A stretch of 47,829 nt of DNA from Candidatus Avigastranaerophilus sp. (GTDB taxonomy: Bacteria > Cyanobacteriota > Vampirovibrionia > Gastranaerophilales > Gastranaerophilaceae). The stretch lies in assembly GCA_045538205.1 (NCBI GenBank), contig JAZSQW010000003.1, forward strand, positions 1 to 47,829, given 5' to 3'. Shown in pieces: positions 12,869 through 47,419 of this stretch (position 1 is the first letter of the stretch; each line of letters begins with the position of its first letter). The notes under the pieces were generated by a model that saw only the letters and a list, made by a program, of their open reading frames with translations, had not been told where the DNA came from and searched no databases. A program made the position numbers and the translations under genes.

Positions 12869-13768
12869 TTAGTCACTATTTTCACTTTTTTGATAACTGT
12901 TATCTGTGATTTGTGATACATATTTGCGCGATTTCCACATGGCCAGCATGTGTCGTGCCTCCCTTTCGCCCCCACCGATGCCTGCCATGCGTCTCACGTC
13001 CAGTGCCTCTTTCAGGGTGAAGGTGTCGGGGAGCAATTCCAGCAAGTTCCGTGGCCCGGGCTTGCGTCGGGCAGCTTCTCCTTCGCTCATGCTCTCCTCG
13101 ATGTCCGCGCCGAAGAACTCCATCTTGCACCACAGGTCGTACTCCAGGCTCCAGCGCACAAACTCCTCGATGGCCTTCGACCACTTGCATCCGTGTGCCA
13201 CGTAGAGCACACATGCCTTCAGGTAGGCAATCACGTTGGCACGGAACGAGAGGTTCTCGTACACGCGGCTCTGTGTCAACCGTGCCCGGTCGGCACACTC
13301 CTCCTTCAGCTTCATGGCCAGGCGGTACGCTTCGGGACACTCCACCTCGCCTGTGGCCTTGGTGAGGCGTTCGATGTAGGGGCGCAGCTCTTCGGCAAAG
13401 GCCTCGTCGTAGGTGCCATAGACGGGCATTTCCGAGCCTATCTCCCGTTCGGGTATGGTGCAGAAGTTGATGCGCGAGACGGGTCCGTCGGTCAGCACCG
13501 AGCGGAAGTACCGCCTGCCCTTCTGGATGGTGGTCGAGGCATTCCAGTTGAATCGGATGGTCACCTTCTCCGTCACCGACCCCGCCCCCACGCGCGTCTG
13601 TCCGTAGCGGTTTCCTGGGTCGAAGGCCAGACACATGATCTGGAACTGTTGCCCTCCTCGTCCGCTTCCGCGCAAGGCATCGAACTGGTCAATCTCGTTC
13701 ATTTTCGTGTAGAGGAAGTGCCCGTCGGCCTCGGCCGTACGCATCACAAAGGCTGGATTGGTCATAAC
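12869..13768 (-). pseudogene. C-terminal 299 codons of a P-loop NTPase gene (phage/ICE primase-helicase-like) split by the prophage
   Basis: GC-rich ORF ending at attL. Continues in frame from the fragment at 47413-47781 once 13769-47406 is removed. Confidence 0.75.
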
Positions 13769-13788
13769 AATACTCTATAATGTTCCCG
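13763..13788. other. attL: host arm CATAACAA, shared core AATACT (13769-13774), phage arm AATGTTCCCG (13779-13788)
   Basis: Compared with attR by eye; see the integration-site finding. Confidence 0.7.
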
Positions 13789-13804
13789 ATTTAAAAATTA
13801 TTAT

Positions 13805-13812
13805 TACCTTTG
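13805..13812 (+). promoter_or_regulatory. -7 box TAccTTTG for integrase
   Basis: 22 nt upstream of the ATG at 13834. Confidence 0.5.
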
Positions 13813-13833
13813 CAGCATAAAAATATTACAGTT

Positions 13834-15345
13834 ATGATAAAAGCATTAATTATTATTAGAACTTCTACAAAGAAGCAAGAGGTTGATTCTCAAAATTATG
13901 AGATTGTAAACTACGTTAAATCAATGGGTTATACAGATGATGAAATTGTAGTAGTAGGTACTAAAGCAGCTTCTGCCATCAAATTAGATGACCGTTATAA
14001 AGAGAATATGAACAAGGTATATGCAACAATTAATAGTAATCCCTCTATTGAATGTGTATATGCTTGGGGTTTGGATAGAATCGGTAGAAATGAAGAACTT
14101 ATGGTAGGATTTAAGAATTTCTTGATTCAAAAAAAGATAAATTTGAGAATTAAAGAGCCATCTTTATATTTGTTAGAAGATGATGGCACTGTAAATAAAG
14201 GTATGGAATTAGCACTTAGTTTATTTATAACTATGGCTAAACAAGAAATGGAACAAAAGAAAGCCAGATTCAAAAGAGCCAAGGATAGGAATCGTAGAGA
14301 AGGAAGATTTAACGGAGGTGCTGAAACCAGATTCGGATATAGTGTAGAAAATGGATATTTCGTAGTTAATAAAGAGGAAGCAGATATAGTAAGACTGTTA
14401 TTTGATGAATATGCTACTGGAGCATATAGCATTCAAAAACTAAGCAATGAAATGAATAGTAGAGGTATTAGACACAGGGGAAAAAGGCTTACTTTAGATT
14501 TTCTGCATAGTTTGTTATCTGATAACACTTATATCGGTGAAGGAAACAAAGCCGCTATTATAGAAAAAGAAGTCTTTGATAAAGTTGCAGCTATTAGAGT
14601 TAAAAACACTTCCCCACTTTTAACTAAAGAGAGTAAGACTATACATTTAGCTACAAAAATTTTAGTCTGTGAAAACTGTGGCTGTAATTACGGAGCAAAC
14701 TTTGATAGATATGTATGTTACAAACACAGATTTCCCAGTAGATTTCAAGATGAATGTACCAACGATTTAACTATTAGAATTGACTTAATGGATAAATTGA
14801 TTTGGGAGGTAGCTTTTGAAATGCACAAACAGTATTTATCAGTCGTAGATCAGACAAAGATAAATGAAATTGATAGAGAATTAGCTGTATTAGGACAAAA
14901 AGTATTGGAAATTTACAATAAAATGGAGGCTCTTAAACCTAGAAGAGAAAGAATTATTGAATTATATACTGACGGTATTACAACTAAAGAGCAGTTCACC
15001 AGAGCAGAAAATAAGATTAAAACAGATTTAGAAAATTATAATGAAATTCTAAACAGCTATATAGAAAAGACTGAATATTATAAGGAATTGGCAGAAAAGG
15101 TTAAAAATCCAGACACAGATATTGTTGTAAATAGCCAAGAAGAAAAGAAAAAGATTGTATCAAAGCATATAAAAAAGGTCGTAGTCAGAAGGCACGAATA
15201 TTTAGGAAAAGTTATGACTTTGATAATCTTTAATGACAATATTAAAATTTTATACAATCCTTGGTCAAAACGAAAAACGGATAATAACATCTACTACTGG
15301 GAAAACGAACAGTGGGTAGGAAAATATAGAGTTTCTGCCAAATAA
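13834..15345 (+). CDS. int: large serine recombinase (integrase)
   Basis: N-terminal resolvase motif ALIIIRTSTKKQ, recombinase domain, Cys-rich zinc ribbon (CENCGCNYGANFDRYVCYKH), coiled-coil C-terminus. No TAG; TAA stop. Confidence 0.88.
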   Translation: MIKALIIIRTSTKKQEVDSQNYEIVNYVKSMGYTDDEIVVVGTKAASAIKLDDRYKENMNKVYATINSNPSIECVYAWGLDRIGRNEELMVGFKNFLIQKKINLRIKEPSLYLLEDDGTVNKGMELALSLFITMAKQEMEQKKARFKRAKDRNRREGRFNGGAETRFGYSVENGYFVVNKEEADIVRLLFDEYATGAYSIQKLSNEMNSRGIRHRGKRLTLDFLHSLLSDNTYIGEGNKAAIIEKEVFDKVAAIRVKNTSPLLTKESKTIHLATKILVCENCGCNYGANFDRYVCYKHRFPSRFQDECTNDLTIRIDLMDKLIWEVAFEMHKQYLSVVDQTKINEIDRELAVLGQKVLEIYNKMEALKPRRERIIELYTDGITTKEQFTRAENKIKTDLENYNEILNSYIEKTEYYKELAEKVKNPDTDIVVNSQEEKKKIVSKHIKKVVVRRHEYLGKVMTLIIFNDNIKILYNPWSKRKTDNNIYYWENEQWVGKYRVSAK

Positions 15346-15381
15346 AACAATAAAGCCAGCAAAGTGATGCTGGCTTTACTT

Positions 15382-16302
15382 TTATATGAAACTTAAAAAG
15401 TCGGCTTCAGACATTATTTCTATGTCTTGTCCTTTGTCTTTCAGTTTTATGGCTTTTTCTTGTTTGGAACTTAGACCGTCTTCACCTACTACCCTGTAAT
15501 CCTGCTGGCCTACTACAAGTATATCAGTATTCTTAGTTACAGAATCTACAGGGATGCCACCTATATCAGCTATCTTTTGCCACAAACCTTGTCTGGTGGA
15601 ATAGCTAAGTTTGCCAGTAAAACATACGGTTTTCTGGTAGAAGTAGTTTCCTTCATCTATCAGTTCTGGATTCCCTTGTATGTTGGCACTTTTTATTTTA
15701 GGGCTTCCAGTAGATAGCTGTGGTTTAAAGTATGATGGCTTAAATTCACCACGTTTAAAATAGTATTTGGCTTCCAGTTCCTCTAAAGATGTAACTTCTG
15801 CCAGTTCCAAAGATTTGATAAAGACTTTGGCACAGGCTACAGAATCACTTTCCGCTCTATGGTGTGATTCAAAAGGAATATTCATAGCTTCACACAATGG
15901 GGACAAAGAATAGCTGTAGGTATCTTTAAAAGTGTATTTGGCAATTCTACAGGAACAGAAATGCTTGAATGTAGGAAATTCTATATCATAGAGTTCAAAA
16001 GCATCTTTCAAAGCGTACATATCAAATGAGGTGTTATGAGCCACTACAATTTGATTTGTCAAGTATGGTTCTACTTCTTTCCAGACCTTTTCAAATGAAG
16101 GACTGTTTTTTGTCATTTGGGGTGTAATGCCGTGAAGATAGATATTAAATCCATCGTAATCATTCCCTTCTGGACGAACTAACCAGCTTTTGCTTTCAAC
16201 TATCTGGGAATCCTTTACTATGGCTATACCTATTTCACAGATAGAGTTTCTTTGCCAGTTGGCAGTTTCTAAATCTAATGCTACAAAATTCAGATTTTCC
16301 AT
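15382..16302 (-). CDS. DEDDh 3'-5' exonuclease (DnaQ-like) fused to a C-terminal BRCT domain
   Basis: FVALDLETAN ... VAHNTSFDMYAL ... HHRAESDS exo motifs. BRCT-like segment TVCFTGKLS...DILVVGQ. Start set at MENLNF because a -7 box lies inside the longer track ORF. No TAG. Confidence 0.8.
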   Translation of the reverse strand: MENLNFVALDLETANWQRNSICEIGIAIVKDSQIVESKSWLVRPEGNDYDGFNIYLHGITPQMTKNSPSFEKVWKEVEPYLTNQIVVAHNTSFDMYALKDAFELYDIEFPTFKHFCSCRIAKYTFKDTYSYSLSPLCEAMNIPFESHHRAESDSVACAKVFIKSLELAEVTSLEELEAKYYFKRGEFKPSYFKPQLSTGSPKIKSANIQGNPELIDEGNYFYQKTVCFTGKLSYSTRQGLWQKIADIGGIPVDSVTKNTDILVVGQQDYRVVGEDGLSSKQEKAIKLKDKGQDIEIMSEADFLSFI

Positions 16303-16324
16303 ACGCTTTTGTTTTAATTTGATG

Positions 16325-16332
16325 CAAATATA
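16325..16332 (-). promoter_or_regulatory. -7 box TAtaTTTG (minus strand) for the exonuclease gene
   Basis: Reverse complement of CAAATATA, 23 nt upstream of the ATG at 16302. Confidence 0.45.
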
Positions 16333-16375
16333 CAATAAAATAGCAGCTTAATAATAGTTTCTACTTATAAATGTG

Positions 16376-16383
16376 TACATTTG
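16376..16383 (+). promoter_or_regulatory. -7 box TAcaTTTG
   Basis: 23 nt upstream of the ATG at 16406. Confidence 0.45.
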
Positions 16384-16405
16384 CAGAAACAAATAAATTG
16401 CAGGT

Positions 16406-16897
16406 ATGAAAAAAGTACTATTACTGATAGCTTTAATTAGTTTGCCACTACTGGCATTTGCACAGTCTGTATCATATACATACAAGCCATTAGCAGCAGA
16501 AGGATGCAGTGTTAGATATACTGTAGCAAAACAGGATTCTTCCAGTTACATAGTAGTTACGATAAAGTCAGACCGCTTTAAGTTCCTTACAGAATCCACT
16601 ATGTTAATAAGAACCTACAAAGATGAAGTAATAAAGTTAGAAGGTAAACATATAAATGATGGCAGTGAAACTGGTGGTATCGTATCTGGTAATATAGTTA
16701 TTCCTGTTACTGAAATAAGCACCACAGCACAATTTAAAATAACTGATGAACAAATAGAGAAATTACAGGATGGTGTAGCTAAGATAAGGATTACAGCTAT
16801 TCCAATGAATCACGAAAGAAACTTTAAGAAGGATAAGATAGGTAAGAAGCTATACAAGTACTTCAATGAGTTAGCAAATACTGATGATACCTTTTAA
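16406..16897 (+). CDS. secreted hypothetical protein (accessory/moron candidate)
   Basis: Signal peptide MKKVLLLIALISLPLLAFAQ. No TAG; TAA stop. Confidence 0.7.
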   Translation: MKKVLLLIALISLPLLAFAQSVSYTYKPLAAEGCSVRYTVAKQDSSSYIVVTIKSDRFKFLTESTMLIRTYKDEVIKLEGKHINDGSETGGIVSGNIVIPVTEISTTAQFKITDEQIEKLQDGVAKIRITAIPMNHERNFKKDKIGKKLYKYFNELANTDDTF

Positions 16898-16971
16898 AAC
16901 AAAAAAGCCAGCTTACTTAGCTGTAAAATGAAGGAATAAGGGAATAATCTTGAATTTCAAATTTTGAATGT

Positions 16972-17568
16972 ATGGTTACTATACTTTTTATTGTTGTTAT
17001 CTTAGTTATATATATACTGGTAATTGCTTGTAAAGAATCTGGGAAACGTAGAAAAGCCCAAAAGGAATTATCCGATAAATACATTAAGTTTATATCACAA
17101 TTTAACAAGGTGAATGGGACACGTTATTTATTATATGGTGATTTAAATGCAATATTTAATAAGTGCCTTGTGGATTACATTTTTACAGCTAATTATGTTT
17201 TACCTTTTGTTTTAGATAAAAAACACGATATATCTTTACATAATTACAGATATAAAGATATGAAGAACTATAAGGAATCAAGTATATACAAATTAGAAGA
17301 ATGTAGATTAGGGGAATTATTAAACATACAAAAAAACCAAGATGTGAAATTATTTTATAGTACCCTATTTGATATTTCTATAAACACCTTTTCTATAGAT
17401 CATAAAATATGTGCTGCACATTATGTTAAAGAAAATAACCCTGTAAGAATAAGAATATTTACTGAATACAGGGATTCTGGAGAACTTTGGTTAGATACAT
17501 TTACAATTACTGGACAACATATAGAATCTACAGTGAAACATTTAGGGTCAGCTTCTGATTATGAATAA
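16972..17568 (+). CDS. N-terminally membrane-anchored hypothetical protein
   Basis: TM segment VTILFIVVILVIYILVIAC followed by a 170-aa soluble domain. No TAG. Confidence 0.65.
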   Translation: MVTILFIVVILVIYILVIACKESGKRRKAQKELSDKYIKFISQFNKVNGTRYLLYGDLNAIFNKCLVDYIFTANYVLPFVLDKKHDISLHNYRYKDMKNYKESSIYKLEECRLGELLNIQKNQDVKLFYSTLFDISINTFSIDHKICAAHYVKENNPVRIRIFTEYRDSGELWLDTFTITGQHIESTVKHLGSASDYE

Positions 17569-17597
17569 TTATAGTGCTAACTTTATTGCTTATACTT

Positions 17598-18434
17598 ATG
17601 CCTAAAACATTTCAACATTTGAGTAAGTCTGCTATAAATACAATGCTGCCAGATAATTTGCAGTTAAAAGACAAAAAATATAGTGGTAATATTTACTCTA
17701 CAAAAGGAGGAGATTTAATAGGATATACAGAATCTAAATACTATGAAAAAGAAGATGAATTTTTCTATTCATTATTTATAGATTTATTTGAAGAATATGA
17801 AGTTAAAAATGCCTGTTTAGCAGTCTATAATAAGGGGGTGTTTCTGTTACCATTGGAGTTATTGTTAGAATTGAGAGAAGTTACTCATTCAAAGCTATAT
17901 AAAGATATAGGGCTAAGATATAATCTTCATATTGTTGAAAAAGATAATAGCTTCACATTGTGCAAAGCAAAAAATGGATATACAAAAGACCTAACCGAAT
18001 ACTTTATACCGTATGAAGCCCACTGTATAGAAGAATTATATGATATTGATTATGACCAGATTCTACAAGATGCTATAAAATATCAAGATTCAGAACAACA
18101 GTACACTATTACAAATGATGCAAAACGAAGAATTGAAAGTAAAAAGCAAAAGGAACGTATAGCCATTTTAGAAAATCATACCTGCCAAATATGTGGCTTT
18201 AATCAATCTTATATCAATGAAAGCGGAAATAAAAAATGGATTATTGAAGTTGATCATATTATTGAAAAGTCTAAAGGTGGAGGAGAAACAATAAATAATT
18301 TGATGGTATTGTGTCCTAATTGCCACGCAAAAAAAACTTATGGAATAATTAAAATAGATAAGAATTACCGTGTATTTGAAAATAATGTAGAAATACAAAT
18401 TAGGGACAATCATTTGAAATTATCCCTTAAATGA
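17598..18434 (+). CDS. McrA-like HNH endonuclease with unknown N-terminal domain
   Basis: C-terminal segment HTCQICGF...EVDHIIEKSKGGGETINNLMVLCPNCHAKK (CxxC...H...N...CxxCH). ATG at 17598 preferred over the GTG at 17574. No TAG; TGA stop. Confidence 0.75.
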   Translation: MPKTFQHLSKSAINTMLPDNLQLKDKKYSGNIYSTKGGDLIGYTESKYYEKEDEFFYSLFIDLFEEYEVKNACLAVYNKGVFLLPLELLLELREVTHSKLYKDIGLRYNLHIVEKDNSFTLCKAKNGYTKDLTEYFIPYEAHCIEELYDIDYDQILQDAIKYQDSEQQYTITNDAKRRIESKKQKERIAILENHTCQICGFNQSYINESGNKKWIIEVDHIIEKSKGGGETINNLMVLCPNCHAKKTYGIIKIDKNYRVFENNVEIQIRDNHLKLSLK

Positions 18435-18456
18435 ACCATATAATATAAACAAATAA

Positions 18457-18490
18457 TGCCAGCCTACAGTTAAGTAAGCTGGCATTTTTT
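18457..18490. terminator. bidirectional rho-independent terminator
   Basis: TGCCAGC-loop-GCTGGCA with TTTTTT on the + side and a T-rich run on the - side. Confidence 0.75.
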
Positions 18491-18581
18491 ATAGTATGGG
18501 GGCTAAGATGCACATTATACAGAAAGCCATTACAGCACCCCAAATGAACCCTTCTAATATCATTCTATTGTATGTTTTCAT
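18489..18581 (-). CDS. 30-aa hydrophobic peptide MKTYNRMILEGFIWGAVMAFCIMCILAPIL
   Basis: ATG to TAA, single TM-like segment, lies between the tRNA candidate and the terminator. Too short for the track. Confidence 0.35.
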   Translation of the reverse strand: MKTYNRMILEGFIWGAVMAFCIMCILAPIL

Positions 18582-18596
18582 AGTGTTAGGTTTAAG

Positions 18597-18667
18597 TAGT
18601 CCTATTCCGATTCAAACGGAAACTTAGAAGGTTAGAATTTCTTATGCTATCATTACATCATAGGACA
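18597..18667 (-). tRNA. candidate amber-suppressor tRNA, anticodon CUA (tRNA-Sup; Gln identity inferred)
   Basis: Hand fold of TGTCCTA TG ATGT AATGATA GCAT A AGAAA TTCTAAC CTTCT AAGT TTCCG TTTGAAT CGGAA TAGGACT A. Acceptor stem 6/7 bp (U1.U72). D stem 3 WC + 1 GU. Anticodon stem 4 WC + A.C. Loop is U-U-CUA-A-C. T stem 5/5. Has U8, A14, A21, A15:U48, T54, A58. The 19:56 pair reads A:U rather than G:C, which is compensatory. No encoded CCA. Confidence 0.5.
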
Positions 18668-18772
18668 ATATTTAACGAATACTTATCTGATTAAGTCTAT
18701 CAAGCCAGTTAAGGTAGTACTGGCTGTTTTTATCTGGGTATTGTTGCTGGTATGAATCCACCAGCCTTAATA

Positions 18773-19240
18773 TCATTTCTCCGATTTCTTCCATATACCA
18801 TTTATCTTTATGAACTTAGTACCCTTTTCTTTGGGTATCAGTAGTATATTCTTCATCTTCTTTCCTGTATTAATGGCTGTAGTCCTATTACAGTAGAAGC
18901 TATCAGTAGTAGCGTATTTACTAATGGTGAAAGTGCTGTACCAGTAACAGGAATCTTCACCAAAGAAGCAAATGTAAAAGGCTGCATCTAAACCCTTATC
19001 TTTCTTATCCTGTACCAAAGCATTAAACTTATCCACTTCCATAAGGTGTGTATCATAATCTTCATACTGCTGGCTTCTTACTTTGATTTCGGCTACTATG
19101 CCTTTATCTTTGAGTTTGAAATAAAAATCTACAGGGTTAAATTCATCTTCTGTGGGCTATAAGTCTGTAGCTTTCATCTATCCCAACAGTTCACTTAAAA
19201 GGCTTCTACCCTTCTATTCGGATTCAGTAAATTTATTCAT
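18773..19240 (-). CDS. PD-(D/E)XK / Hjc-like nuclease candidate (recoded, 3 in-frame TAG)
   Basis: Extends track ORF 18773..19042 upstream through TAGs at comp. 19214-16, 19178-80 and 19157-59 to an ATG overlapping the upstream TGA (ATGA). Reads MNKFTESEQKGRSLLSELLGQMKATDLQPTEDEFNPVDFYFKLKDKGIVAEIKVRS... (D...E-x-K). Confidence 0.65.
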
Positions 19241-19818
19241 AATATAATATCGGTTATATGTGGTTGTTCTTCTTTTATATCTTCTTTGGGTTCTTTGGCT
19301 AAGTAGTGACACTTGTAATATAGCCTACCCTTTGTAATATGTCCCTTATCTTCTAATTGCTTTAAGTATTTGCTGGTAGTTTGTCGGGTAATACCCATTC
19401 TATTAGCTATGCCTTCTATGGTGGTTTCTGCTATATCATTTATTCCTATTTCCGCTATCAGTTGTAGGTAAATCAGTACACCCTTTTCTTTTGGCTTCAG
19501 TTCCTGTACAAGTAAATCTGGATTCAACATCAAAAAATCTTTGGACTTTGGTAATGTGTATTCATTAAATACATAATCATTCACTTCTGATTTAAGCTGT
19601 ATGTAGTCCAGAAAGCCGTTTGTTTTTAATCTCTTTACAGCATCTTCCACTTTGCTTAGTGCTATGTTGTATTTGTCTGCTATAGTCCTTAATCCTATTC
19701 TGGATTTGTGTGTAGTGCTATCCTTTTGAAAGTCTATAGCTGCATATACCAGTACATCTATGAATTTAGTTCCTGTTTTCAATGCCAGAAATTTTCTTGG
19801 TATTTGAATAAACCTCAT
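19237..19818 (-). CDS. tandem winged-helix DNA-binding protein (replication initiator or regulator)
   Basis: Two wHTH-like segments (LRTIADKYNIALSKVEDAVKRLKTNGFL; IANRMGITRQTTSKYLKQLEDKGHI). No TAG; TGA stop. Confidence 0.65.
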   Translation of the reverse strand: MRFIQIPRKFLALKTGTKFIDVLVYAAIDFQKDSTTHKSRIGLRTIADKYNIALSKVEDAVKRLKTNGFLDYIQLKSEVNDYVFNEYTLPKSKDFLMLNPDLLVQELKPKEKGVLIYLQLIAEIGINDIAETTIEGIANRMGITRQTTSKYLKQLEDKGHITKGRLYYKCHYLAKEPKEDIKEEQPHITDIIL

Positions 19819-19957
19819 AGTTTGCCGATGTAGGATTATTAGTTAAAATAAAATCTTCTGTGAACTTGAACAATCTGTTAAATAAGCCAGTACCAAAGTG
19901 TATTTTGGCTTCTTTTCGGTTCTGGAACACCTGCCCAGTTGGTTTGTAAATAATCAT
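19766..19957 (-). CDS. small hypothetical protein, first gene of the leftward operon
   Basis: 63-aa ORF overlapping the next gene by 52 nt. No TAG. Confidence 0.45.
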   Translation of the reverse strand: MIIYKPTGQVFQNRKEAKIHFGTGLFNRLFKFTEDFILTNNPTSANYEVYSNTKKISGIENRN

Positions 19958-20044
19958 TCGTTTTTCTTCAAATTTGGTTAGTTTGCTAATCTAAAAATGA
20001 AAATTCATCTAAAAAGAGTGCCTAAAGTCGTAATGTTAAATTTT

Positions 20045-20098
20045 GGGTACTATTCCATACAAAGGTATTTTTGATGTATGGATATGTACCCATTTTTT
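20045..20098 (+). terminator. long hairpin plus T-run (GGGTAC..TCCATACA..TGTATGGA..GTACCC ATTTTTT)
   Basis: Read directly. No annotated + gene upstream, so possibly a small-RNA end. Confidence 0.4.
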
Positions 20099-20114
20099 AA
20101 CATTGACCTTTTAT

Positions 20115-20143
20115 GATAAGATTTCGTTTGAATCTTATCTTTT
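20115..20143 (+). terminator. 9-bp hairpin GATAAGATT-TCGTTTG-AATCTTATC followed by TTTT
   Basis: Read directly. Confidence 0.4.
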
Positions 20144-20353
20144 CGGCTAAGTGAGCCTTTGAAAATTAAAATTATGAGTAGCTTTTTGTAACTGTAATCT
20201 TCTGATTATCATCTATACAAGTATATTCACAATTCTGGGCGATTCCAAATAAATATAGCGGAATCTTTGTTTGGCTGGCTGGTATGCCGCTAATCTCTGC
20301 CAGGCACTGACCGACCTGCCGAGCCAACCGAAATTTGGCGAAAAGAAGCCGAT

Positions 20354-20764
20354 TTAGTCCGCTGGGGTACTTTCCACCGTAATAGCCGCTTTTCTACCCT
20401 GCTGTAGATTACTTTTTAGTATAGAAGTTAGTAATGTTTCATATTTGGTGGAATTGAGAACTTTACCCTTCACTTTGTTTTCACCTACCAGAATACAGCC
20501 ACTGGTATCATTTGGAGTATTACCACGGTGTATTAGTATTCCTTCAAAGTTTGGCACATTAAGTAATCTGGGTAAATCCCTTTTGAATTTGGGCGATCTG
20601 TTTACTATGACTTCATAAGTGCCTTCTGGAATGGCTGTTTTGTGCATTATCTTCTTTTCTCTTACGGTATCTTCCAACGTATCACAGAAGTACTACCCAT
20701 CTATATAAAGTCTGCCTATTGTGTAATCTGTTTTTTGTGCTATTCGTTTTAAAAGTAGATTCAT
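20354..20764 (-). CDS. DUF5675-like / YkuD-fold putative cell-wall hydrolase (recoded, 1 TAG)
   Basis: Track ORF 20354..20677 extended upstream through one TAG: [23 protein letters not shown][TAG][12 protein letters not shown]... Motif [19 protein letters not shown] resembles the H...SxGC L,D-transpeptidase-fold site. Confidence 0.65.
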
Positions 20765-20790
20765 TTGTTTGTCAATACATTAATTATGAG

Positions 20791-20798
20791 TAATTTTG
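20791..20798 (+). promoter_or_regulatory. -7 box TAatTTTG
   Basis: 22 nt upstream of the ATG at 20820. Confidence 0.45.
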
Positions 20799-20819
20799 CA
20801 GCATATAAATAAAAGCAGG

Positions 20820-21341
20820 ATGAAAACTTATCTATTTGACACATTCAACAGATATAAAAGATTCAGTGAAAAACTGGATGCTAAGACTATTCTTTGTAAT
20901 AAATCTTGGTGGGTGTTTAATGATTCTGGAGAAAAAGAAGTGTATATTTTTAATACAGATGGTTCTTTAATTATATCCGTATCTGGTAAGGTGACAAATG
21001 CCACTTGGAAGTATATTCCTGCAAATAAATCTATCATTATTGCCGCTGGTGAAGAATCTTATATGGTTATTCCTGCTTTTGTGGATAGCAATATATTAGC
21101 TCTACAGATAGATGGTACTGATGAATTTGCTTTTCTGATTGATGAACAGAATATACAGAAATTCCTGCCTAAAACTTTATTAGAAGTACACCAATATTTT
21201 GAAGACAAGGAAGCAAAAGAAATTGAAGCTAAAATTATTAAAGAAAGAGAATTGAAAGAAACAGAACAAACAGATAAAAGGCTTGTTATCTGTCTTTTTA
21301 TTCTTGCAGGTGTGTGTGTTCTTATTGAATTATTATTTTAA
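20820..21341 (+). CDS. C-terminally membrane-anchored hypothetical protein (TAG-free island inside the recoded block)
   Basis: MKTYLFDTFNRYKRF... with C-terminal TM segment LVICLFILAGVCVLIELLF. TAA stop. Confidence 0.65.
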   Translation: MKTYLFDTFNRYKRFSEKLDAKTILCNKSWWVFNDSGEKEVYIFNTDGSLIISVSGKVTNATWKYIPANKSIIIAAGEESYMVIPAFVDSNILALQIDGTDEFAFLIDEQNIQKFLPKTLLEVHQYFEDKEAKEIEAKIIKERELKETEQTDKRLVICLFILAGVCVLIELLF

Positions 21342-21624
21342 AATGTAATTTCTAATGACATTCTTTGCAAAGGCTTTGCAAATTATGAAAGTCGTATGCC
21401 TTTTGTAATCTCATATTTCCTGTATAATTCATAAAACTATCTATGTGGTGAACATCTACAGCAGGTTTCACTATACCAGCCTGTAGGCACTATTCACAAA
21501 GTGGATTTGCCATTAGCTTTGCCTACCTTAGTTTCTTCCATTTTGCAGACTGATACACCTTCTGTCTATCCTGCCTGTTAAATGTTCTGGATTTCTGCTT
21601 TGATGGCTTCTATAAAGTTGGCAT
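21322..21624 (-). CDS. phage HNH endonuclease (recoded, 4 in-frame TAG; alternative start at 21648)
   Basis: Invisible in the track. Own translation: ...RQDRQKVYQSAKWKKLR[Q]AKLMANPLCE[Q]CLQAGIVKPAVDVHHIDSFMNY...NLQSLCKECH[Q]KLHFK. Ends in TAA and overlaps the 3' end of the convergent gene 20820..21341. Confidence 0.75.
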
Positions 21625-21967
21625 TTGTTGTAGGTGTTGGTTCTTCATATTCGGTATCTGGAAAATCTTTATCTTCTATTGGTATCACCATATAGTTTGT
21701 AACCTTACTATCTCTATAATATGCACCCTTTAATAAGTTGAAGTAGTATTTGTACTACTATATAAAGTCCTTATCTGGGTTGTAATTGTATGTCAGTTTA
21801 AGATAAGTATCATTAAATATATCTTCATCCGTTTCTGACTTCACCAGCATAGAATGTAACTGCTGGTAGTGTTTGGTAAGTAGTCTGCTTACTTCTGGGT
21901 TATATAGGGCTTTTTCTACATTAACCTACATTCTTTTCCACTAATCCCAGTTATTAACCTGCTGCAT
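21578..21967 (-). CDS. hypothetical protein, 129 aa (recoded, 4 TAG including a tandem TAG-TAG); weak sigma region-2-like pattern
   Basis: MQQVNNWD[Q]WKRM[Q]VNVEKALYNPEVSRLLTKHYQQLHSMLVKSETDEDIFNDTYLKLTYNYNPDKDFI[QQ]YKYYFNLLKG...IQNI, TAA stop. Confidence 0.6.
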
Positions 21968-22127
21968 TGTTATACTTCTTAATGTAATCTGAAATAAAGT
22001 ATCTTACAAGTTTAGCTTTTGGTAGCTGTAAATCTTTAGACATTCTGTTTAGTTCCTAATCTTGGTTAGGGGTTAATCTTACAGTGATTCTGTTACTTTT
22101 GTTCTTTGTTTTATCGGTATTTCTCAT
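21954..22127 (-). CDS. ribbon-helix-helix (Arc/MetJ-like) DNA-binding protein, 57 aa (recoded, 1 TAG)
   Basis: MRNTDKTKNKSNRITVRLTPNQD[Q]ELNRMSKDLQLPKAKLVRYFISDYIKKYNNAAG, TAA stop. Confidence 0.6.
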
Positions 22128-22154
22128 ATCCATTAATTTATAGGTTTATATAAA

Positions 22155-22162
22155 CAAATATA
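22155..22162 (-). promoter_or_regulatory. -7 box TAtaTTTG (minus strand) for the RHH-HNH block
   Basis: 28 nt upstream of the ATG at 22127. The 22128-22282 gap is a divergent control region and possibly the cos region. Confidence 0.4.
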
Positions 22163-22282
22163 TTCTTTGCAGAAGTGTTCCCAAAATATTTTTATCTGAT
22201 TTTTTATTTGGCTGCCATATAACTGTATTATTAATGAAAAACGAATTAACAAACTGATTATTAACAATAAAACTAATTATTT

Positions 22283-22660
22283 ATGGCAAAATTTAAGATA
22301 CCTACAGACATTGAAAAGGATGCAGTGGAATATATGAAGAATGTGCTGCAACAGTTAGAAGATAACGGTGTTTTGGAAAATGTAGATAGTGCTGCATTAA
22401 CAATGCTGGCCAGAAACTACAGTATGTTTATCAAAGCATCCAAATAGCTTGAAAAAGATGGATTAACAGTAACCAGTGACAGGGGAAACATAGCACCCCA
22501 CCCAGCTATAAAGATTGCCAAAGATGCACAAATACAGGCTATGAAAGTAATGGCAGAATTTGGGCTTACTGCCAAAGCCAGAACCAAATTAAAGATAGAT
22601 AAGGCAGATGAAGATTCACCGTTTGAAGCGTTTGTAAAGGCTGGTAAAGAAGTTAGATAA
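22283..22660 (+). CDS. terS: terminase small subunit, P27 family (recoded, TAG at 22445-22447)
   Basis: MAKFKIPTDIEKDAVEYMKNVLQQLEDNGVLENVDSAALTMLARNYSMFIKASK[Q]LEKDGLTV...HPAIKIAKDAQIQAMKVMAEFGLTAKARTKL. TAA stop overlaps the next ATG (TAATG). Confidence 0.8.
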
Positions 22661-23277
22661 TGGGCAAATTAAAGAAGAATCCTATTCTGGATGATGCAGG
22701 TAAGATTATAGGGTATGAAGCACCAACAAAGGATATACAGATAATGGTATGTGACAAGAAAGAAGCGGATGCCATAATTATAGCAAACCACTATTCACAC
22801 AAAGCCACAAAGAACAGCTTTCTTTCTTTTCTGGTGTATTACAAAGATAAGGTAGCTGGGGCTTTACAAGTCGGTTATGGAATCCGACCAAAGAAAAAGG
22901 GTACACTGAATCCAGACGAAGTTAGGGAATTTGATAGAATGTGGCTATCTGATGAAATGCCGAAATATTCGGAAACTATCACTTTATCCCTGCTACACCA
23001 TTATCTAAGGAAAGTACACCCAGAAGTAAAGTATCTGATTAGCTATGCAGATAACAGTAGTGATGTAGGCAATGAAGGGACTATTTATAAGGCTGCAAAC
23101 TACAAACTGATAGACAAAGTAAAATCCGATTTCTACATACTTGAATCTGGTGAACGAGTACACCCAGTAACGATGTGGCACAGACACGGAACAAGAAAAT
23201 GGGCTTTCCTACAGTAGCAGTACCCCAACATTAAAAAGGCTGATGGATTCCAGATGAAATACCTGTTTGAATTATGA
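22660..23277 (+). CDS. Mom-like GNAT-fold DNA-modification protein (adenine methylcarbamoylation family), recoded (TAG at 23215-23217)
   Basis: ANHYSHKATKNS...REFDRMWLSDEMPKYSET...LISYADNSSDVGNEGTIYKAANY matches the family pattern as I remember it. TGA stop in an ATGA overlap with terL. Confidence 0.6.
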
Positions 23278-26102: not shown

Positions 26103-26631
26103 AATTGAACCATTAAAAGAAGATAGCAGAACCATAGAAGGCTATGCTATTGTATTTAATGCTGAATCCAGAGACTTAGGAGGGTTCACGGAATAGATAG
26201 AACCTACAGCTTTGGAAGGCATTATAGAAAAATCTGATATTCTTTGCCTTCTTAATCACAATGAAGATAGAGGTGTTTTAGCCAGAAGTAAGTTTGGTGA
26301 AGGCAGTTTGGAACTGATGGTAGATGACATTGGACTTATGTACAGATTTGAAGCACCTAATACGGCTTTGGGGGATGAACTGTTAGAAGGCATTAAGAGA
26401 GGTGATATTAGTACCAGTAGCTTTGCCTTCACTGTAGAAAAAGATACTTGGATTAAAAAGGATGATGGCAGTTATTTACGGACTATCAATAGCTTCAAAG
26501 AATTGTTTGATGTATCACCTGTATATAAAGAAGCCTACCCAGATACCAAAGTAGCGGTAAGAAAGATGCAGGATATGGAATCTGAAGGGCTTAAATCTTA
26601 CTTTGATGAACTTAAAAAGAAATTGGTATGA
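26080..26631 (+). CDS. prohead serine protease, HK97 family (recoded, TAG at 26194-26196)
   Basis: MKETRSFKIEPLKEDSRTIEGYAIVFNAESRDLGGFTE[Q]IEPTALEG...LLNHNEDRGVLARS... TGA stop in an ATGA overlap. Confidence 0.8.
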
Positions 26632-27800: not shown

Positions 27801-27826
27801 TACAGTTTGTTAATAATAAGTAAGCT

Positions 27827-38185: not shown

Positions 38186-41100
38186 ATGAAACTGAATATA
38201 GGAACAAAATACACAGGGGATTATCTTACAGCAGAAGAATTTAACCAGTTAGTCAGTGCCATAAACAATTACAAGTTAGGGGAACTGACTAACGTAAATT
38301 CCACTGTGGATGAAGATGTAGAAGATGATTGTGTACTGGTAAAATATGCTGGTGAAGATACTTTTACCCTAAAGAGACTGGCAGAGATAACCACACCAGT
38401 AATAGGGCTACAAAGATACATAGCTTTGCAGAATAATATGATTAGTAAGAATGTGGCTGTAAGTAAGGGTGATAACTGTTTGTTGGATTTCACCTTTGTT
38501 TCACAGGAAAGATATTCTTCAGCAGACAAATACACTAACACAGATGAAAGGGGACTTTTGTAGGTAGCCATTAAGAACAGTACATACAGTGAATACACCA
38601 TAGTTAAGCAGGTGTACATAAACAGTGCAGAACCTACCAAACTGGATATAACGGAATATCTTACTTCCAGTTCTAATAGTGTTATGCTGAAATGTGAAGG
38701 GGAAGTTACAGGGGAAACTACTTCGGCTTTGGTTTATACGGTAACAGTAACTACACTGGGTATCAATGCGGATAATTTCAGATGGTGGTAGCCTTATTCT
38801 GGTGATATAGCCATACCATTCATTATTAGCGGTAACATTACAAAGAAACTGTTTGTGACGGTAACAGGCAATGGATATAACACTTCTTATGAAGAAAACT
38901 TAGGTACTACCACTTACACAGAAACACCGTATAACTACACAGTACCCAGACCTACAGCAGATGGAGTTTATAAGATTACGGCTTATGTAAGTAATCTGGA
39001 TGAAACATTAGTGACAAAGCAAGTTTCATTTAATGTTATTGTAGCTTCCACTGGTTCACAGAAAAAATATCTGGTTGTAAATAACGTGAATACAACCATT
39101 AAGAACTATTCGGAAAACAATGTATTGGAATATGCCGTTTATGATGGGGATTCCAGTACTACAGATTTGAACTTTACTATAGTTCTGGAAGGGAAACAGG
39201 TTTATCTATCTACTGAAGATGCAGCACCTACACAAAGCAGAAACAGCTTTACCTATCAAGCGGAAATAGAGTATGAAAGCAATTCCAATTTTGAAGTAAC
39301 TTTGGCTATTGGTGATGATGTCACAAAGAATCTGGTAACCCCCATTTCTTTAGTGGTGGATAACAGCTATTCATTTGGAAGTACAGCAGGTGCTACATTC
39401 TATATGAACCCCAGAACCAGAAGCAATGCACAAAGCAACAGGACAAAGATAGTGAATGAAGTAACTGGTGAAGAAATTGCAGCTACTTGGACTAACTTTA
39501 ACTGGGGTAATGATGTATGGCAAACAGACGATGCAGGGAACAGGGTACTTAGGGTAATGAGTAATGAAAAGCTGGTAATGGACTATTACCCATTCAAGAC
39601 AGAAGCAGCCCGAAAAGGTAAGACTATAGAAATTGATTATTTGGTAGATAATGTAATAGACTACAGCCAGCCTGTTATACAGATGTGCAGCAGTGAAGAT
39701 GAATATACAGGATTGAGAATCACCCCAGATAATATTTGCCTGTTATCCCAGTCACTGAAGAACAAGATTACACAGGCTACCAATACCGACACAGGAAAGA
39801 GAATCAGACTAACAGTAGTGATTATGCCTACAGCTTATGGAAATGCTGACTTTAATTTGGCTATCCTGTATATCAATGGTAAGAAGAACAGGGAATTTTC
39901 ATACGCTACCAATGATTATTTTGCATAGAGTTCACCAGTAACTATAGGTTCAAACTTTGCTGATGTCGATGTTTACGGAATAAGAATGTATGATATGGCA
40001 CTTACTTCATAGCAGGTGCTGAAGAACTATATAAACTGGCTTACTGACAATGCAGAGAAAGAGCAGGTAAACACTGCTAATGATGTGTTGGATATTACAG
40101 GTACGGAAGTAGATTTTGATAACACCATAGACCAGTATAACATTATGGTATTTGACAATGATTTGCCTTCTTACTTAGACCCCAACGAAAAGAAGGGTAC
40201 TTTGTCTATCTACTTCTATGAGCACCCAGAAAGAAACGTATCAATCAGTAATGTAAAAGCCAGTGGTTAGGGTACATCTTCAAAGAAGTATTTCAGATGG
40301 AACACGAAGTACAAACTGGATAAGGAAAAAACGGTTATCACTTATGCCGATGGTACAACAGGTACAAAGAAATGGCAAATGACACCAGATGTACCTGCTG
40401 CCAGTGTATTTACTGCCAAAAAGAATTTTGCATCTTCTATGCAATCTCATAAGATGGGTAGTGTTAATTCGGTGGATTTACTCTATAAGGAACTGGGGCT
40501 TACTAACGAAGCTATGGAACTGGATTCTACAAAGAGAATAGCCGTTTACCAGATGCCGTTTATAATGTTTACAAAGTCGGTAAATGAAGAGGGGGACACC
40601 GTTTATAGGTTTGAAGGTGAATATACTTTTGGTGCAGATAAAGGGGATGAAAATACTTTTGGCTATGATACTGACAAGTTCCCCAGATTGATAAGTATAG
40701 AAGGTTCTGATAATTCACCACTGCCAGCCCTGTTTAGGATTCCTTGGAGTAGCAGGATGCAGTATAATGAAGATGAAGAGGCTTTTTAGTACAACGGTTA
40801 GAACTGCTGGGATTTTGGAGGTGGAGAGGTAGAGAATATAGATTTATGGATTCCTGCCTATAATCTGGCTTATGAATGTAGCAACAGAATACGACCTTTT
40901 AACGGTACACTGGATGAACTAAATGCCGATGTAGTGACCTATAGAAGTTCTGGGTATGATTACTGGATAGCTAAAGAAGGTGATGCCAACCAATATAACC
41001 AGTACTACTATGAGAGTTCAGAAGGCAGGTTTATAGGGGCTGATACTGGTAACGGTACTATCAATCTGCTTACATAGTTGGCAGATTACATAGACACTGC

Positions 41101-44074
41101 CAGTTTTTCCGCTTTGAGCAATGAGGAAAAGAACAGTTTGTTTATCACTTCCAGAATAGCCAAATTTAGGGATGAAGCACCTACATACTTTGACATTACA
41201 GATGCCATATTTCACAGGAACTGGATAGAAGTTCACGCTGGTACAGACCAGAGAGCAAAGAACACTTATCCCTATTGCTTTGGTGATGGGTATAAATGGA
41301 AATGGCGGTTTGATGATATGGATACAATCTTTGACACCGACAATCAAGGATAGCCACTAAAGAAGTATTCTGTAGAAGTACAGGATGAAGGGGTTTGGAA
41401 CGGACAAACCAGCAACTTCTGGAACTTGATAGATTTGGCATACCCAGAGGAAATACATAATGAAATGACTGCCTTTTTAAATGCAATGGAAACACTGGGG
41501 GGATTGAATGTAGGGGATGATTACGGCAAACTGTATGCCTACTTCAAACGGTTCTATTTAGACAATTCACAGTATTTCCCTGCTGCCGTAGTTAATGCTG
41601 ATACAAAGTACTGCTATGAGACTGCCAAACTGAATACGCAGTATGTGAATGATACAGACCCGATGACACAGGCACTGGGCGATCATTATTCTGCTGAAAG
41701 TGCTTGGATAAGCAAACGTATCAATTACATAATGAGTAAGTACAGCTATGGTAATTTCAGTGCTCACGGTAACGATACTATCATAGTCCGTGCAGCAGGT
41801 GATTTGATTAACTACCAGCTTACACCAGCCATAGATTTGTACCCGAATATAGCTAATGGTACTTCCATAGTGAGAGGTAACAGAACTTATGCAGGTGATA
41901 CTACTGTTATGACTATTGATTTGGGTGGTAGTGCAGACCAGCAGAACATTATACAGGGTGCAAGTTGGTACAGTTCTATAGGTGACTGGCACGACAAGAA
42001 CGTAAAGGGAACTATGACTATACAGGGTAAGAGATTACAGGAACTTGTATTAGGCAGTAAGACAGATGATATAACCATAAAGATAGATGCCTTAGAAGTA
42101 AAATCTACCTGTAAATCATTACAAAGCATCCTTCTTAGTAACATATCCACTTTGAAGGGTAATCTGGATTTGTCGGGGTGTACACATTTAAGGGAAATAT
42201 ACGCAGATGGTACGGCACTTTCACAGATAATACTTCCAAAGGGTTCACTGGAGCACATAGAATACCCAGATACCAGCCAGTATTTGAATCTGTAGAACTA
42301 TCCGCTTTTGACTTATGATAATGTAAAACTGGGTAATAGTATAGGTAATATCAATGATATGATAATAACTGCCTGCCCATAGATGTAGCCTGTAAGGATG
42401 CTTAGTGACATTATCAGTGAAGATAACCATTCTTTGAAGCGTATAAGGCTAACAGATTTTAATGAAGTGTTTGATTCTTCCAATGGTTCTAAGGTGTTGG
42501 ATAATCTGGCTATCCTTACAAATGGTAACTATACTGGACTGGATGCAAACGGCATAGAGATAGAAGGCAGTTATCCGTTTCTGGATGGTACTATAACGGT
42601 AAACTGTAACTGCTATGAAGATTCTGTAGAAGCATTAAGAAGCAAGTTCAACAGATTAACTATTAATGTGAACGGACAATATTACATTAGATTCAAAGAC
42701 CAGCAGACACAGGATTATATAGTAGGTTTGTGGGGGGATGGCAAAGGGGTAACAAAAAGTGCGTTGAAACCTTTAACCAGTTCCTATTATGGTACTTTGT
42801 TCTTTGCTTATGTAAGTAATGGCACAGCAGATGGAAAACCTACTGACGATAGATTATTAAGACCTATCAGTATGAATTATGAACTGGGAGAATACTTTGA
42901 TGAATTGAAGTACTTTACAGGGTGTGAAAGGGTTACGATGTATAATACAAGGTTAAAAGGGGCTATATTCCCTGCTTAGTTAAATAATGCTTCTGGGCCA
43001 AAGATAGCTGTGGCAGGATCTACTGTAGAATATGTCAAATATATGGACGGTGAATAGAATTTGACGGTTTCATTTGATAATAACTATTCAATACAGCAAA
43101 CTATAGAATTACTATATTTGCCACATAATGTAGTAAATATGGCTGATTATGTTTTCAGAAGTGTAAGCTATGGAGAATTTTATATAGCTGCCACTACACC
43201 ACCTGTAATGAAATGGGGATATGGCAGTAGTGTTAATGCTGTAAAGGGCAAAGTGTATATTCCTGTAGGTGCAAAAGCAACTTATGAAGCTGCTACATAT
43301 TGGAGTAACTTTGTAGATAAGTTTGAAGAATATGATTATGATTCAGATGGAAGGGGTGTTATTCCGTATATGGAATATACCAAAGAACTTACAGGATTAA
43401 CCAGTAGCTATAGAAAGGGGTATATAGAAACAATACTGACACCCAGAAACGCTGTAAGAGATTTGGTGTATGAATCAAATGTAGATAATTTCGTAAAGGT
43501 TAGTAAAACAGGAAAACTTACTTTTGGGAACTTTGGTACTTCACAGGTGAAGGTTTACAATTCATATAAGCCAGAACTTTTTTCCACTATAACACTATCT
43601 GTAGAAAAACCTGCTAATGGGTATTATTCATACAACGCACCTATAACATTTGATACAGGTATTCCACTTACATTAAATACTAAGATGTATATGAAGTTTA
43701 ACAACTTCCAGAAGTCTATAATGATGGGATTATGTGGTACTGCTTGGAATAGTAGTAATGGTATGTACTTTAATTCCAATAGTACAACATAGCTAAGATT
43801 CATTAATAACGGTATCACTACAGTTAATGTTACTGCTGGTGAACCTTTGGAAGTCCTGTTTGAAAATGGTAAGGTTACAGTTAATGGTACAGAATATACA
43901 TTAGGTGTAAGAACAGAATCTGCTACTGGTACTATTAAGCTATTTAATAATAACTATGCTATGGATGAACCTAATTTCATTGGTGATATGTATGAGATAA
44001 AAATATATGAAGGTGATGAACTGTTAGCCCATTATGCACCTTCAACAGATGGAACTTTGGTAGAACTTGTATAA
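38186..44074 (+). CDS. giant tail/host-recognition protein, 1962 aa (recoded, 15 TAG), with LRR and BspA-type LRR_5-like C-terminal regions
   Basis: Ten track ORFs (38186, 38855, 40016, 40379, 41078, 41426, 42398, 43061, 43847 and others) all in frame 2. All inter-ORF gaps hand-translated and contain only TAG. LRR-like segment ...LSNISTLKGNLDLSGCTHLREIYADGTALSQIILP... BspA-like segment ...FYIAATTPPVMKW...VYIPVGAKATYEAATYWSNF. TAA stop. Confidence 0.8.
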
Positions 44075-44286: not shown

Positions 44287-44294
44287 TAGAAAAT

Positions 44295-45289: not shown

Positions 45290-45314
45290 ATTATTTATTT
45301 ACAATTATTTATAG

Positions 45315-45431: not shown

Positions 45432-45497
45432 CACCAGAAAAATTAATAACTGGTGTGCCAGATACCGAAATAAATCCACAGGGCAGTGGTGAAAGAA

Positions 45498-46388: not shown

Positions 46389-46421
46389 GAGAAAACTTTA
46401 GCCATAGTAATAATGAAAAAA

Positions 46422-46452
46422 AGCCAGTAGGATTATTCCTGCTGGCTTTTTT
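46422..46452 (+). terminator. rho-independent terminator
   Basis: AGCCAGTAGG-loop-CCTGCTGGCT followed by TTTTTT. Confidence 0.75.
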
Positions 46453-46486
46453 GTGTGTTTGTAGTTCTTCTATAAAATCAATTTGC

Positions 46487-46494
46487 TACCTTTG
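46487..46494 (+). promoter_or_regulatory. -7 box TAccTTTG
   Basis: 16 nt upstream of the ATG at 46510. Confidence 0.45.
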
Positions 46495-46509
46495 CATAAA
46501 AAATACAGG

Positions 46510-47190
46510 ATGGATAAGGAAACATTAATAAAAGCAATAAATCACAAGGAATATGGCAATAGCCTTATTTCAATTTGGTATAATATCGGTAGGGCTTTAC
46601 CATTCAGAGCACAGAGATTTCCAGATGGTAGGGTTTCAGATTGGTATAGGTCACAGTTTGTAGAAGTACATAGTGTTAAGCCCAGTGGTAAAGGGGCAAA
46701 GTATGGTAATGCTTATGGCTTCTATTATAGGAATGATGAAAGAGCAAATGCAGATGATAATCCAGATTATAGCTGGTGTAATATTGATGATTCAGAGCCA
46801 AAAGATATACCACACGCAGCTTGTGGTTCTTGGGTTCTTATTGATATTCTTGGTGAAGCTACAGCAGAACCGACCAAAGTATATGGGGTTAATGATGTAT
46901 TAGAAAAAGGCAAATATAAAGGAAAAACTGTAGCAGAAGTTATTCATTCAGATTGGAGCTGGGTTAAATGGGCGGAAACTAATAGTGAACAATTCTTCTT
47001 TAAGTGGGATGAAGTCTTGGAAGAACGGAAGAAAAGTATAAAGATTTTGCAGCCAGAAGATATACTTACTTTTGGAAAGTATAAGGGTAAGACAATAAAA
47101 GATATAGCAGAAAATGATTTCAACTATCTTAGGTGGTTAGCTGATAGAACAGATGATTTTGCAATTAATTTTGAAGGGTTGAAAGATTAG
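46510..47190 (+). CDS. protein with two DUF3820-like (GKYKGKT...Y[LV].W) repeats; the only prophage gene whose stop is TAG
   Basis: GKYKGKTVAEVIHSDWSWVKWAETN and GKYKGKTIKDIAENDFNYLRWLADRT. TAG at 47188-47190 is followed 19 nt later by a 12-bp terminator stem. Confidence 0.7.
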   Translation: MDKETLIKAINHKEYGNSLISIWYNIGRALPFRAQRFPDGRVSDWYRSQFVEVHSVKPSGKGAKYGNAYGFYYRNDERANADDNPDYSWCNIDDSEPKDIPHAACGSWVLIDILGEATAEPTKVYGVNDVLEKGKYKGKTVAEVIHSDWSWVKWAETNSEQFFFKWDEVLEERKKSIKILQPEDILTFGKYKGKTIKDIAENDFNYLRWLADRTDDFAINFEGLKD

Positions 47191-47208
47191 AAACAAATTC
47201 AAAATGGG

Positions 47209-47250
47209 ATAGCCTACTTTTTCAAATAGAAAGTGGGCTATTCGTCTTAT
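47209..47250 (+). terminator. hairpin ATAGCCTACTTT-loop-AAAGTGGGCTAT plus T-rich tail
   Basis: Read directly. Lies inside the 24-codon extension that TAG read-through would create. Confidence 0.55.
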
Positions 47251-47393
47251 TAAGGGTATGGGGTGAAATTTTAGAGGTTTAAGGCTTGAAACCCCAGCCC
47301 AGCCTTCTTTCCACAAAAAGTAATTCCCATTATTCAAAATCTATCATTTTTGCAATTCTAAATTAAAACTGCTACATTATGTTTCTAGAATTA

Positions 47394-47419
47394 CGGGAAC
47401 ATTGTTAATACTTGTTATG
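47394..47419. other. attR: phage arm CGGGAACATT (47394-47403), core AATACT (47407-47412), host arm TTGTTATG
   Basis: Mirror image of attL; see the integration-site finding. Confidence 0.7.

Follow-up and report, generated by a model that had tools for sequence, protein, structure and literature searches.

The mycobacterial element phiRv1 is inserted by a serine integrase and has its attB in the repeated sequence REP13E12, so that a genome offers it several landing sites. The Listeria phages A118 and phi10403S have their attB inside the open reading frame (ORF) of comK, a single-copy gene with a known conditional role. Their large serine recombinase (LSR) combines Resolvase, Recombinase and zinc-ribbon domains, their attP is a pseudo-palindrome of ~50 bp, exchange takes place at a 2-bp crossover, and excision restores the gene. 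In A118 the asymmetric GG core alone fixes the orientation of insertion (PMC3556126). In Bacillus, SPbeta (SprA/SprB, in spsM) and skin (SpoIVCA, in sigK) are likewise serine-recombinase elements that split a gene reconstituted by precise excision (PMC5499854). Both excisions are developmentally programmed. From another direction, the TAG-recoded Garnet prophages of Prevotella are ~34 kb long, carry a TAG-free integrase and show a unidirectional GC skew (bioRxiv 10.1101/2021.08.26.457843). Here we compare with these systems an element found on contig JAZSQW010000003.1 (assembly GCA_045538205.1), of which we analysed positions 1-47,829 of the forward strand (hereafter the window, to which all coordinates refer). 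This element is very probably a temperate tailed phage of 33.65 kb whose own large serine integrase inserted it into a multi-copy Bacteroidales gene of ~786 amino acids (aa) through recombination of a 48-bp attP with attB at a 2-bp AT. The insertion is delimited by the following features:

13766-47418, + strand: prophage, 33,653 bp with one copy of the AT counted, ~35% GC with monotonic GC skew; assigned from composition, boundaries and phage gene content
13741-13788: attL, composed of the host half-site 13741-13763, the crossover AT 13764-13765 and the phage P' arm 13766-13788 (AACAATACTCTAT + AATGTTCCCG)
47394-47441: attR, composed of the phage P arm 47394-47416 (CGGGAACATT + GTTAATACTTGTT), the crossover AT 47417-47418 and the host half-site 47419-47441
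13769-13774, + strand: left AATACT, within the phage P' arm; not the core and, as a repeat, not conserved in related attP sites
47407-47412, + strand: right AATACT, within the phage P arm; not the core
12869-13765, - strand: C-terminal fragment of the target gene, 298 aa, starting at the gene's internal Met codon, whose ATG supplies the crossover AT
47419-47829, - strand: upstream part of the target gene, holding the invariant GTGAGKD motif and running off the window end

GC content drops from ~0.50 outside to ~0.32-0.40 between the two AATACT copies and recovers only at the right end of the window. The exact boundaries come from comparison with empty sites. A search with the fused target protein returned more than 3,000 homologues, the best of them 97-99% identical, and provided 80 uninterrupted loci in Bacteroidales genomes (below, L-numbers denote related loci or contigs fetched for comparison and X-numbers metagenome runs). 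When 13766-47418 is removed, the remaining host sequence aligns to L001 without a gap across the junction, at 97% nucleotide identity. As the initial annotation had proposed, the two GC-rich ORF pieces flanking the element are the halves of one gene, split by the site-specific insertion of a serine-integrase prophage, and precise excision would rejoin them in frame. In uninterrupted alleles and empty-site contigs the host junction reads GATGCAGAC-AT-GACCAATCC, and 79 of the 80 loci carry the motif GAY-AT-GAC. Contigs from X25, X30 and X33 follow the host up to 13765 and then continue with GTC(C/T)GCATCAATCTC, which is the window from 47419 onward, while an X33 contig read from the other side gives GGGATTAGTC and then matches from 47417.

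The host/phage boundary in attL is thus set by the uninterrupted alleles, by empty-site contigs that pass straight from 13765 into 47419 and by nine homologous junctions described below, and that in attR is supported by the X33 contig joining GGGATTAGTC to AT(47417)GTCTGC, together with the uninterrupted alleles and the empty-site alignment. Host and phage are identical over exactly 2 bp, the AT at 13764-13765 and 47417-47418. The bases beside this AT differ between attP and attB (T/C on the left, A/G on the right), and attB around the crossover reads ATTGATGCAGAC-AT-GACCAATCCAGCC. A search of metagenomes for both recombination products, suggested beforehand, recovered the empty-site attB join (X25, X30 and X33), at the AT, but no attP junction of the prophage itself.

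Joining the phage ends at the AT gives, on the + strand, the 48-bp attP CGGGAACATT GTTAATACTTGTT AT AACAATACTCTAT AATGTTCCCG (10+13+2+13+10), with the halves CGGGAACATTGTTAATACTTGTT-AT-AACAATACTCTATAATGTTCCCG around the core and CATTGTTAATACTTGTT-AT-AACAATACTCTATAATG nearest to it. Its layout, CGGGAACATT-N13-AT-N13-AATGTTCCCG, has perfect 10-bp outer arms (47394-47403 and 13779-13788), which had been recognised correctly, and an inner palindrome, TTGTT-AT-AACAA. Because the two 13-bp spacers are equal, the dyad of attP falls in the middle of the AT. The 33-bp attP reconstructed previously is 15 bp too short, and its 13-bp spacer, odd in length and centred on one base, is at variance with exchange at a 2-bp stagger. 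The corrected site has the form expected for large serine integrases, an imperfect inverted repeat of ~40-50 bp symmetric about a 2-bp crossover, and its identity with attB is limited to the central dinucleotide, as in those systems.

Three related, unintegrated phage contig lineages carry an intact attP a short way upstream of the integrase, again spaced 13+2+13 and of the shared form GGAACATTGTTAAnnnnTGTT-AT-AACnnnnnnnnATAATGTTCC. These read AGTAACATTGTTAAACCTTGTT-AT-AACAGTCCTATATAATGTTCC in L088, AGGAACATTGTTAATGTTTGTT-AT-AACTAGGATACATAATGTTCC in L093 and CGGGAACATTGTTAATGTTTGTT-AT-AACAACTATAGATAATGTTCC in L103/L104. The far side of the site holds a homologue of window 45486-46388 in L088, and fibre and holin-like genes in L093; in L103/L104 the ~170 bp available upstream of attP gave no phage-gene match. 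These are genuine phage attP sites, and they fit the corrected model and not the 33-bp one.

The same site is used across the family. We compared nine integrated junctions representing six integrase lineages (the window, L086, L087, L089, L090, L091, L094/L096, L101/L102 and L105), in all of which the P' arm directly follows the GTC-AT or GAC-AT of homologous genes. At seven of the nine, the integrase end adjoins the C-terminal half of the target in antisense (MTNxAFV...). At the other two, L087 and L089, it adjoins the upstream half in sense (EWKNEVNSKGANKDKR.RPEGLV.Q...D). The phage DNA of L086 and L087 is 100% identical over 4,021 bp from the junction, and that of L089 and L090 is 99.8% identical over 6,383 bp, with opposite target halves adjoined in each pair. 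Thus, in two lineages of relatives, the same phage enters the same site in either orientation.

The enzyme predicted to be responsible is encoded just inside the left end, where the initial annotation had placed a large serine recombinase gene:

13834-15345, + strand: large serine recombinase (integrase), 503 aa, with the N-terminal catalytic motif RTSTKKQ, no in-frame TAG, and its start 68 bp inside the crossover

Pfam matches confirm its domain set. Resolvase (PF00239, E 7.4e-10) covers residues 13-166, where IIRTSTKKQ can be read at the N-terminus, and Recombinase (PF07508) matches at E 1.7e-7. Zn_ribbon_recom (PF13408) is weak (19.2 bits against a cut-off of 25.3) and is annotated in several close homologues. 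Zinc-ribbon motifs placed 5 bp further inward in attB, following the A118 model, gave no convincing match by eye. The exact integrase was found on no contig besides the window itself, and relatives 56-77% identical to it are present at the same target site. To our knowledge, the characterised integrases phiC31, Bxb1, A118 and TP901-1 all have asymmetric cores. The palindromic AT lacks this asymmetry, a departure from the characterised members and not a reason to doubt the enzyme family.

In the mechanism we propose, the integrase would recombine attP with attB inside the coding stretch IQEIDAD/MTNPAFVMR of the target (crossover at the slash), exchanging strands at the AT, the sole identity of the two sites. 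Since AT is its own reverse complement, it cannot set polarity, and insertion in either orientation is expected; the integrase would thus be able to insert the phage either way round. Excision, for which the prophage is presumably competent, would take place at the same AT and restore the target gene without a scar. Previous work on other enzymes gives this expectation a basis. Engineered symmetric cores made the A118 integrase produce deletion and inversion about equally, and the native asymmetric GG was found to 'solely' specify polarity (PMC3556126); with the non-palindromic core of Bxb1, only half of the synapses were aligned productively (PMC5062993); and in the structural model of Rutherford et al., attP and attB synapse equally well in parallel or antiparallel (PMC3783163). 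A symmetric core may double productive encounters, and it would cost the phage nothing: whichever product forms, the prophage lies between hybrid B/P sites.

No part of the target protein is more conserved than the insertion point, and this explains the continued use of the site by diverged integrases across genera. Intact alleles of ~786 aa consist of an N-terminal BT4734-like/PrimPol-like domain (PF08800, E 5e-8; a weak NCBIfam PrimPol match), a low-complexity linker and a conserved C-terminal region of ~420 aa, and some source records label homologues 'DUF3987' or 'VirE'. The C-terminal region had been called a P-loop nucleoside triphosphatase (NTPase). In favour of this label, GTGAGKD is invariant in 22 of 22 homologues. 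On the other side, AGTGAGKD ends in D where Walker A has GxxxxGK[ST], and the region has no Pfam match even at E<=10, no NCBIfam family and no PDB relative, and its AlphaFold model is poor (pLDDT, the predicted local distance difference test score, 53.8) and unfit for a fold search. A P-loop NTPase is plausible from the motif. In the interrupted gene, the upstream ORF reads into the phage (EIDAD-ITSINNVPVILET), acquiring a 13-residue phage-encoded tail that ends at a TAA stop (47377-47379). The downstream fragment begins at a native internal ATG (13763-13765), so that in principle the cell might still make its 298-aa C-terminal product.

The target is a multi-copy gene, with five loci in one Bacteroides metagenome-assembled genome, three in Mediterranea massiliensis P2645T and two apiece in a number of other genomes. 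It differs in this from the single-copy comK and resembles the repeated attB of phiRv1, an element with another host phylum and another target. Similarity between the window and L001/L002 is limited to the target gene and the small ORF after it (12251-12739, - strand), with different flanks beyond, and the flank that the window shows is ordinary chromosomal DNA, with glnS, proS, a DedA/UptA-family gene and a gene for a TPR protein.

Two further observations concern the neighbourhood of the target. A phage DUF5675 protein (window 20354-20764, - strand) is 47-50% identical to a small gene directly downstream of target paralogues in Mediterranea massiliensis and Bacteroides ilei (L004 7250-7660; L018 7363-7776); in the window and L001 a different small ORF (MNRGIRNNNPLNIRRG) is found in that position. 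The target module may have come from a phage or mobile element in its turn. In the linker region of the target, window 47768-47829 contains the hairpin CCTCCCT-GTG-AGGGAGG, and its word depth in X33 is 808-3122 against ~100 nearby, with many different loose ends, so that it looks like a community-wide repeat.

The remainder of the element has the gene content and the genetic code of a TAG-recoded phage. The recoding was noted over window 21300-47260. In-frame TAG occurs 69 times, in 22 of 34 ORFs. It is absent from a block at 13810-18434 that encodes the integrase, an RNase T/BRCT exonuclease, an HNH gene and two small ORFs between this gene and the other two, and it is found in 16 of the 19 ORFs of the late block. 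Read in the standard code, the late genes fall apart (TerL, portal, capsid, tape measure and the 1962-aa protein), whereas read-through of TAG alone yields a tight operon, and only with read-through are the Pfam models for TerL, portal, protease and capsid matched over essentially their full length. The features concerned are:

22283-44286, + strand: late-gene block with TAG as sense, encoding TerS (125 aa), a Mom-like protein (205 aa), TerL (539 aa), portal (402 aa), S78 protease (190 aa), capsid (390 aa), head-tail genes, tape measure (825 aa), tail/fibre proteins (790, 876 and 1962 aa) and a small membrane protein
22660-23277, + strand: Mom-family protein (PF25680, E 1e-38), between the terminase genes TerS and TerL
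38186-44074, + strand: the 1962-aa ORF at the tail-fibre end of the late operon, containing 15 in-frame TAGs
18596-18667, - strand: amber suppressor tRNA with anticodon CUA, 72 nt, just below the ARAGORN default threshold

At aligned positions in relatives, TAG is kept at 28, and the 39 non-TAG codons include CAG 7 times and CAA 3 times, the rest being scattered. This fits, and does not prove, decoding of TAG as Gln. Searches of the window with default ARAGORN and with Rfam (even at E<=1) gave no tRNA. The tRNA(CUA) was found with nhmmer (E 3e-19) and ARAGORN -ps95; it is 93% identical to a tRNA(CUA) that default ARAGORN calls in the relative L094, from which it differs by two compensatory changes in the stems and by one A·C mismatch beside the anticodon loop. 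Altogether, L093, L094 and L104 encode a tRNA with anticodon CUA. A tRNA-Ser GGA at 47272-47344, reported by ARAGORN at relaxed threshold, was rejected as a false positive with many mismatches.

Overall, the prophage matches the known TAG-recoded Garnet type of Borges et al. in its length (~34 kb), a Bacteroidota host, a composition more AT-rich than that of the host, in-frame TAGs in late genes, a TAG-free integrase, a suppressor tRNA and a unidirectional GC skew. It differs in the integration module: the described prophage is bounded by a host tRNA-Met gene, whereas here a serine integrase acts, by our prediction, on a protein-coding target. Within the packaging genes, the Mom-family protein suggests modification of the phage DNA. 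Mosaicism is also apparent, in that the phages of X25, X28, X30 and X33 are ~99% identical to the window in packaging and head genes (21354-28011), as opposed to 13766-21300, where the integrase is diverged (77% aa identity) or unmatched, and show deletions such as 16389-17566 and 20766-21354 relative to the window. In X25, X28 and X33, which are rich in the late genes, there is no match of at least 90% to this integrase region, and other integrase modules are present.

Several other explanations of the locus have to be weighed against these observations. The initial annotation had placed the crossover in a 6-bp AATACT core, with an attB (GGTCATAACAATACTTGTTATGTCTGC) having 8-bp inverted arms and a 33-bp attP (CGGGAACATT-gttAATACTctat-AATGTTCCCG), and it is true that AATACT is present at both ends, at the positions reported, and that the fusion it implies is in frame. 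We nevertheless regard this model as scarcely tenable. The prophage ends at the AT and not at AATACT because uninterrupted alleles and empty-site contigs lack the 15 extra bases (AACAAGTATTGTTAT) that the model requires. All of the ~70 uninterrupted loci aligned to the proposed attB lack these same bases and read GATTGATGCAGAC-AT-GACCAATCC (EIDAD-M-TNP) rather than GACATAACAAGTATTGTTATGACC (EIDAD-ITSIV-MTNP); over the whole set, the 15 bp of the rebuilt site (CATAACAATACTTGTTATG) are absent from ~79 uninterrupted alleles and from the empty-site metagenome contigs. The annotation had itself named a different junction in uninterrupted alleles as the observation that would speak against it, and EIDAD-M-TNP is such a junction. 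In addition, the 15 bases are 20% GC within a GC-rich gene, the '8-bp inverted arms' are the inner attP palindrome TTGTT-AT-AACAA plus one host base on each side, TTGTT-AT-AAC sits between the arms in the related intact attP sites, and the odd spacer leaves no central dinucleotide for an enzyme class that exchanges at a 2-bp stagger. The AATACT pair is a chance-level 6-mer, with one copy in each phage arm: the + strand of the window contains it 25 times, and two random 30-bp stretches of the prophage have some 6-mer in common in 21% of cases. A second alternative is a dead prophage in decay, with nonsense mutations throughout its late genes. In its favour, the standard code breaks nearly every late gene. 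However, every one of these breaks is a TAG, and with TAG as sense the operon closes up, with full-length matches to its packaging and head proteins. The TAG positions are common to relatives or replaced most often by CAG or CAA, a tRNA(CUA) is encoded, and the integrase and early genes are free of TAG, all of which make decay very improbable.

The remaining two alternatives accept the insertion and concern its consequences. The insertion could act as a regulated switch ('active lysogeny', as in comK/phi10403S, spsM/SPbeta and sigK/skin), in which conditional excision triggered by the host turns the gene back on. Exact restoration of the ORF by excision at the AT and the placement of the insertion in an invariant protein stretch agree with this. 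We saw no evidence for regulated excision, and the presence of 2-5 paralogous loci per genome in several genomes, in place of a unique target, makes it less likely, as the loss of one copy is likely cheap. Use of the same site in either orientation is also unlike a tuned transcriptional coupling, and the phage appears fully capable of lytic growth when read in its own code. We therefore consider a switch unlikely; with several copies present and either orientation accepted, it is simpler to see the target as a safe landing site that is always at hand. As for the two orientations, they might reflect chimeric metagenome contigs or two integrase specificities, with the AT core having no role in orientation. 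The contigs are indeed short-read assemblies of complex gut samples, and one orientation is common to seven of the nine junctions. Against this, both orientations occur in each of two independent lineages. All breakpoints coincide with one and the same AT, up to which the phage DNA is 100% and 99.8% identical. Chimeric assembly would need to have hit the exact crossover base on four occasions. An artefact of this kind is, in our judgement, improbable.

Setting these alternatives aside, we tentatively put forward a broader proposal, whose chances we rate at slightly less than even: that these enzymes form a family of natural large serine integrases with a palindromic AT core, for which every attP x attB synapse would be productive, whose prophages could land in either orientation in any of several paralogues of a conserved host gene, and which are carried by TAG-recoded temperate Bacteroidales phages. 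A number of points weigh against our main account of the insertion. The two-orientation cases are relatives and not the window phage, and they lie on short metagenome contigs (5-13 kb); the predominance of one orientation at the nine junctions also leaves room for some bias. The literature searched yielded no description of a natural serine integrase whose core is symmetric, but it did not suffice to establish that natural palindromic cores are undescribed. The excised form of this exact phage was not seen in contig searches. Exact-pattern scans for either attP model in viral and metagenome contig collections gave no match to the prophage's own attP, and a conserved P'-arm/promoter pattern gave only unrelated matches in genome contigs and none in viral contigs. 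The runs X12, X13, X2 and X49 hold this integrase with thin coverage of the junctions, and no contig spans either of them. Finally, the small ORFs included no recognisable recombination directionality factor, a class of proteins without a common sequence family.

In its integration, this prophage departs from a well-known system in a modest but real way. The corrected boundaries, attB and attP offer a means of detecting and delimiting related prophages, several of which are misread as gene fragments on account of TAG recoding. The short, defined att sites and an orientation-neutral integrase could also serve the genetics of gut commensals, although a fixed orientation would need a changed core. 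For serine integrases more broadly, the asymmetric central dinucleotide is taken as the sole determinant of polarity. If the proposed symmetric-core family is real, it would provide a natural test of whether productive synapses are doubled, and it would mean that phages can do without polarity.

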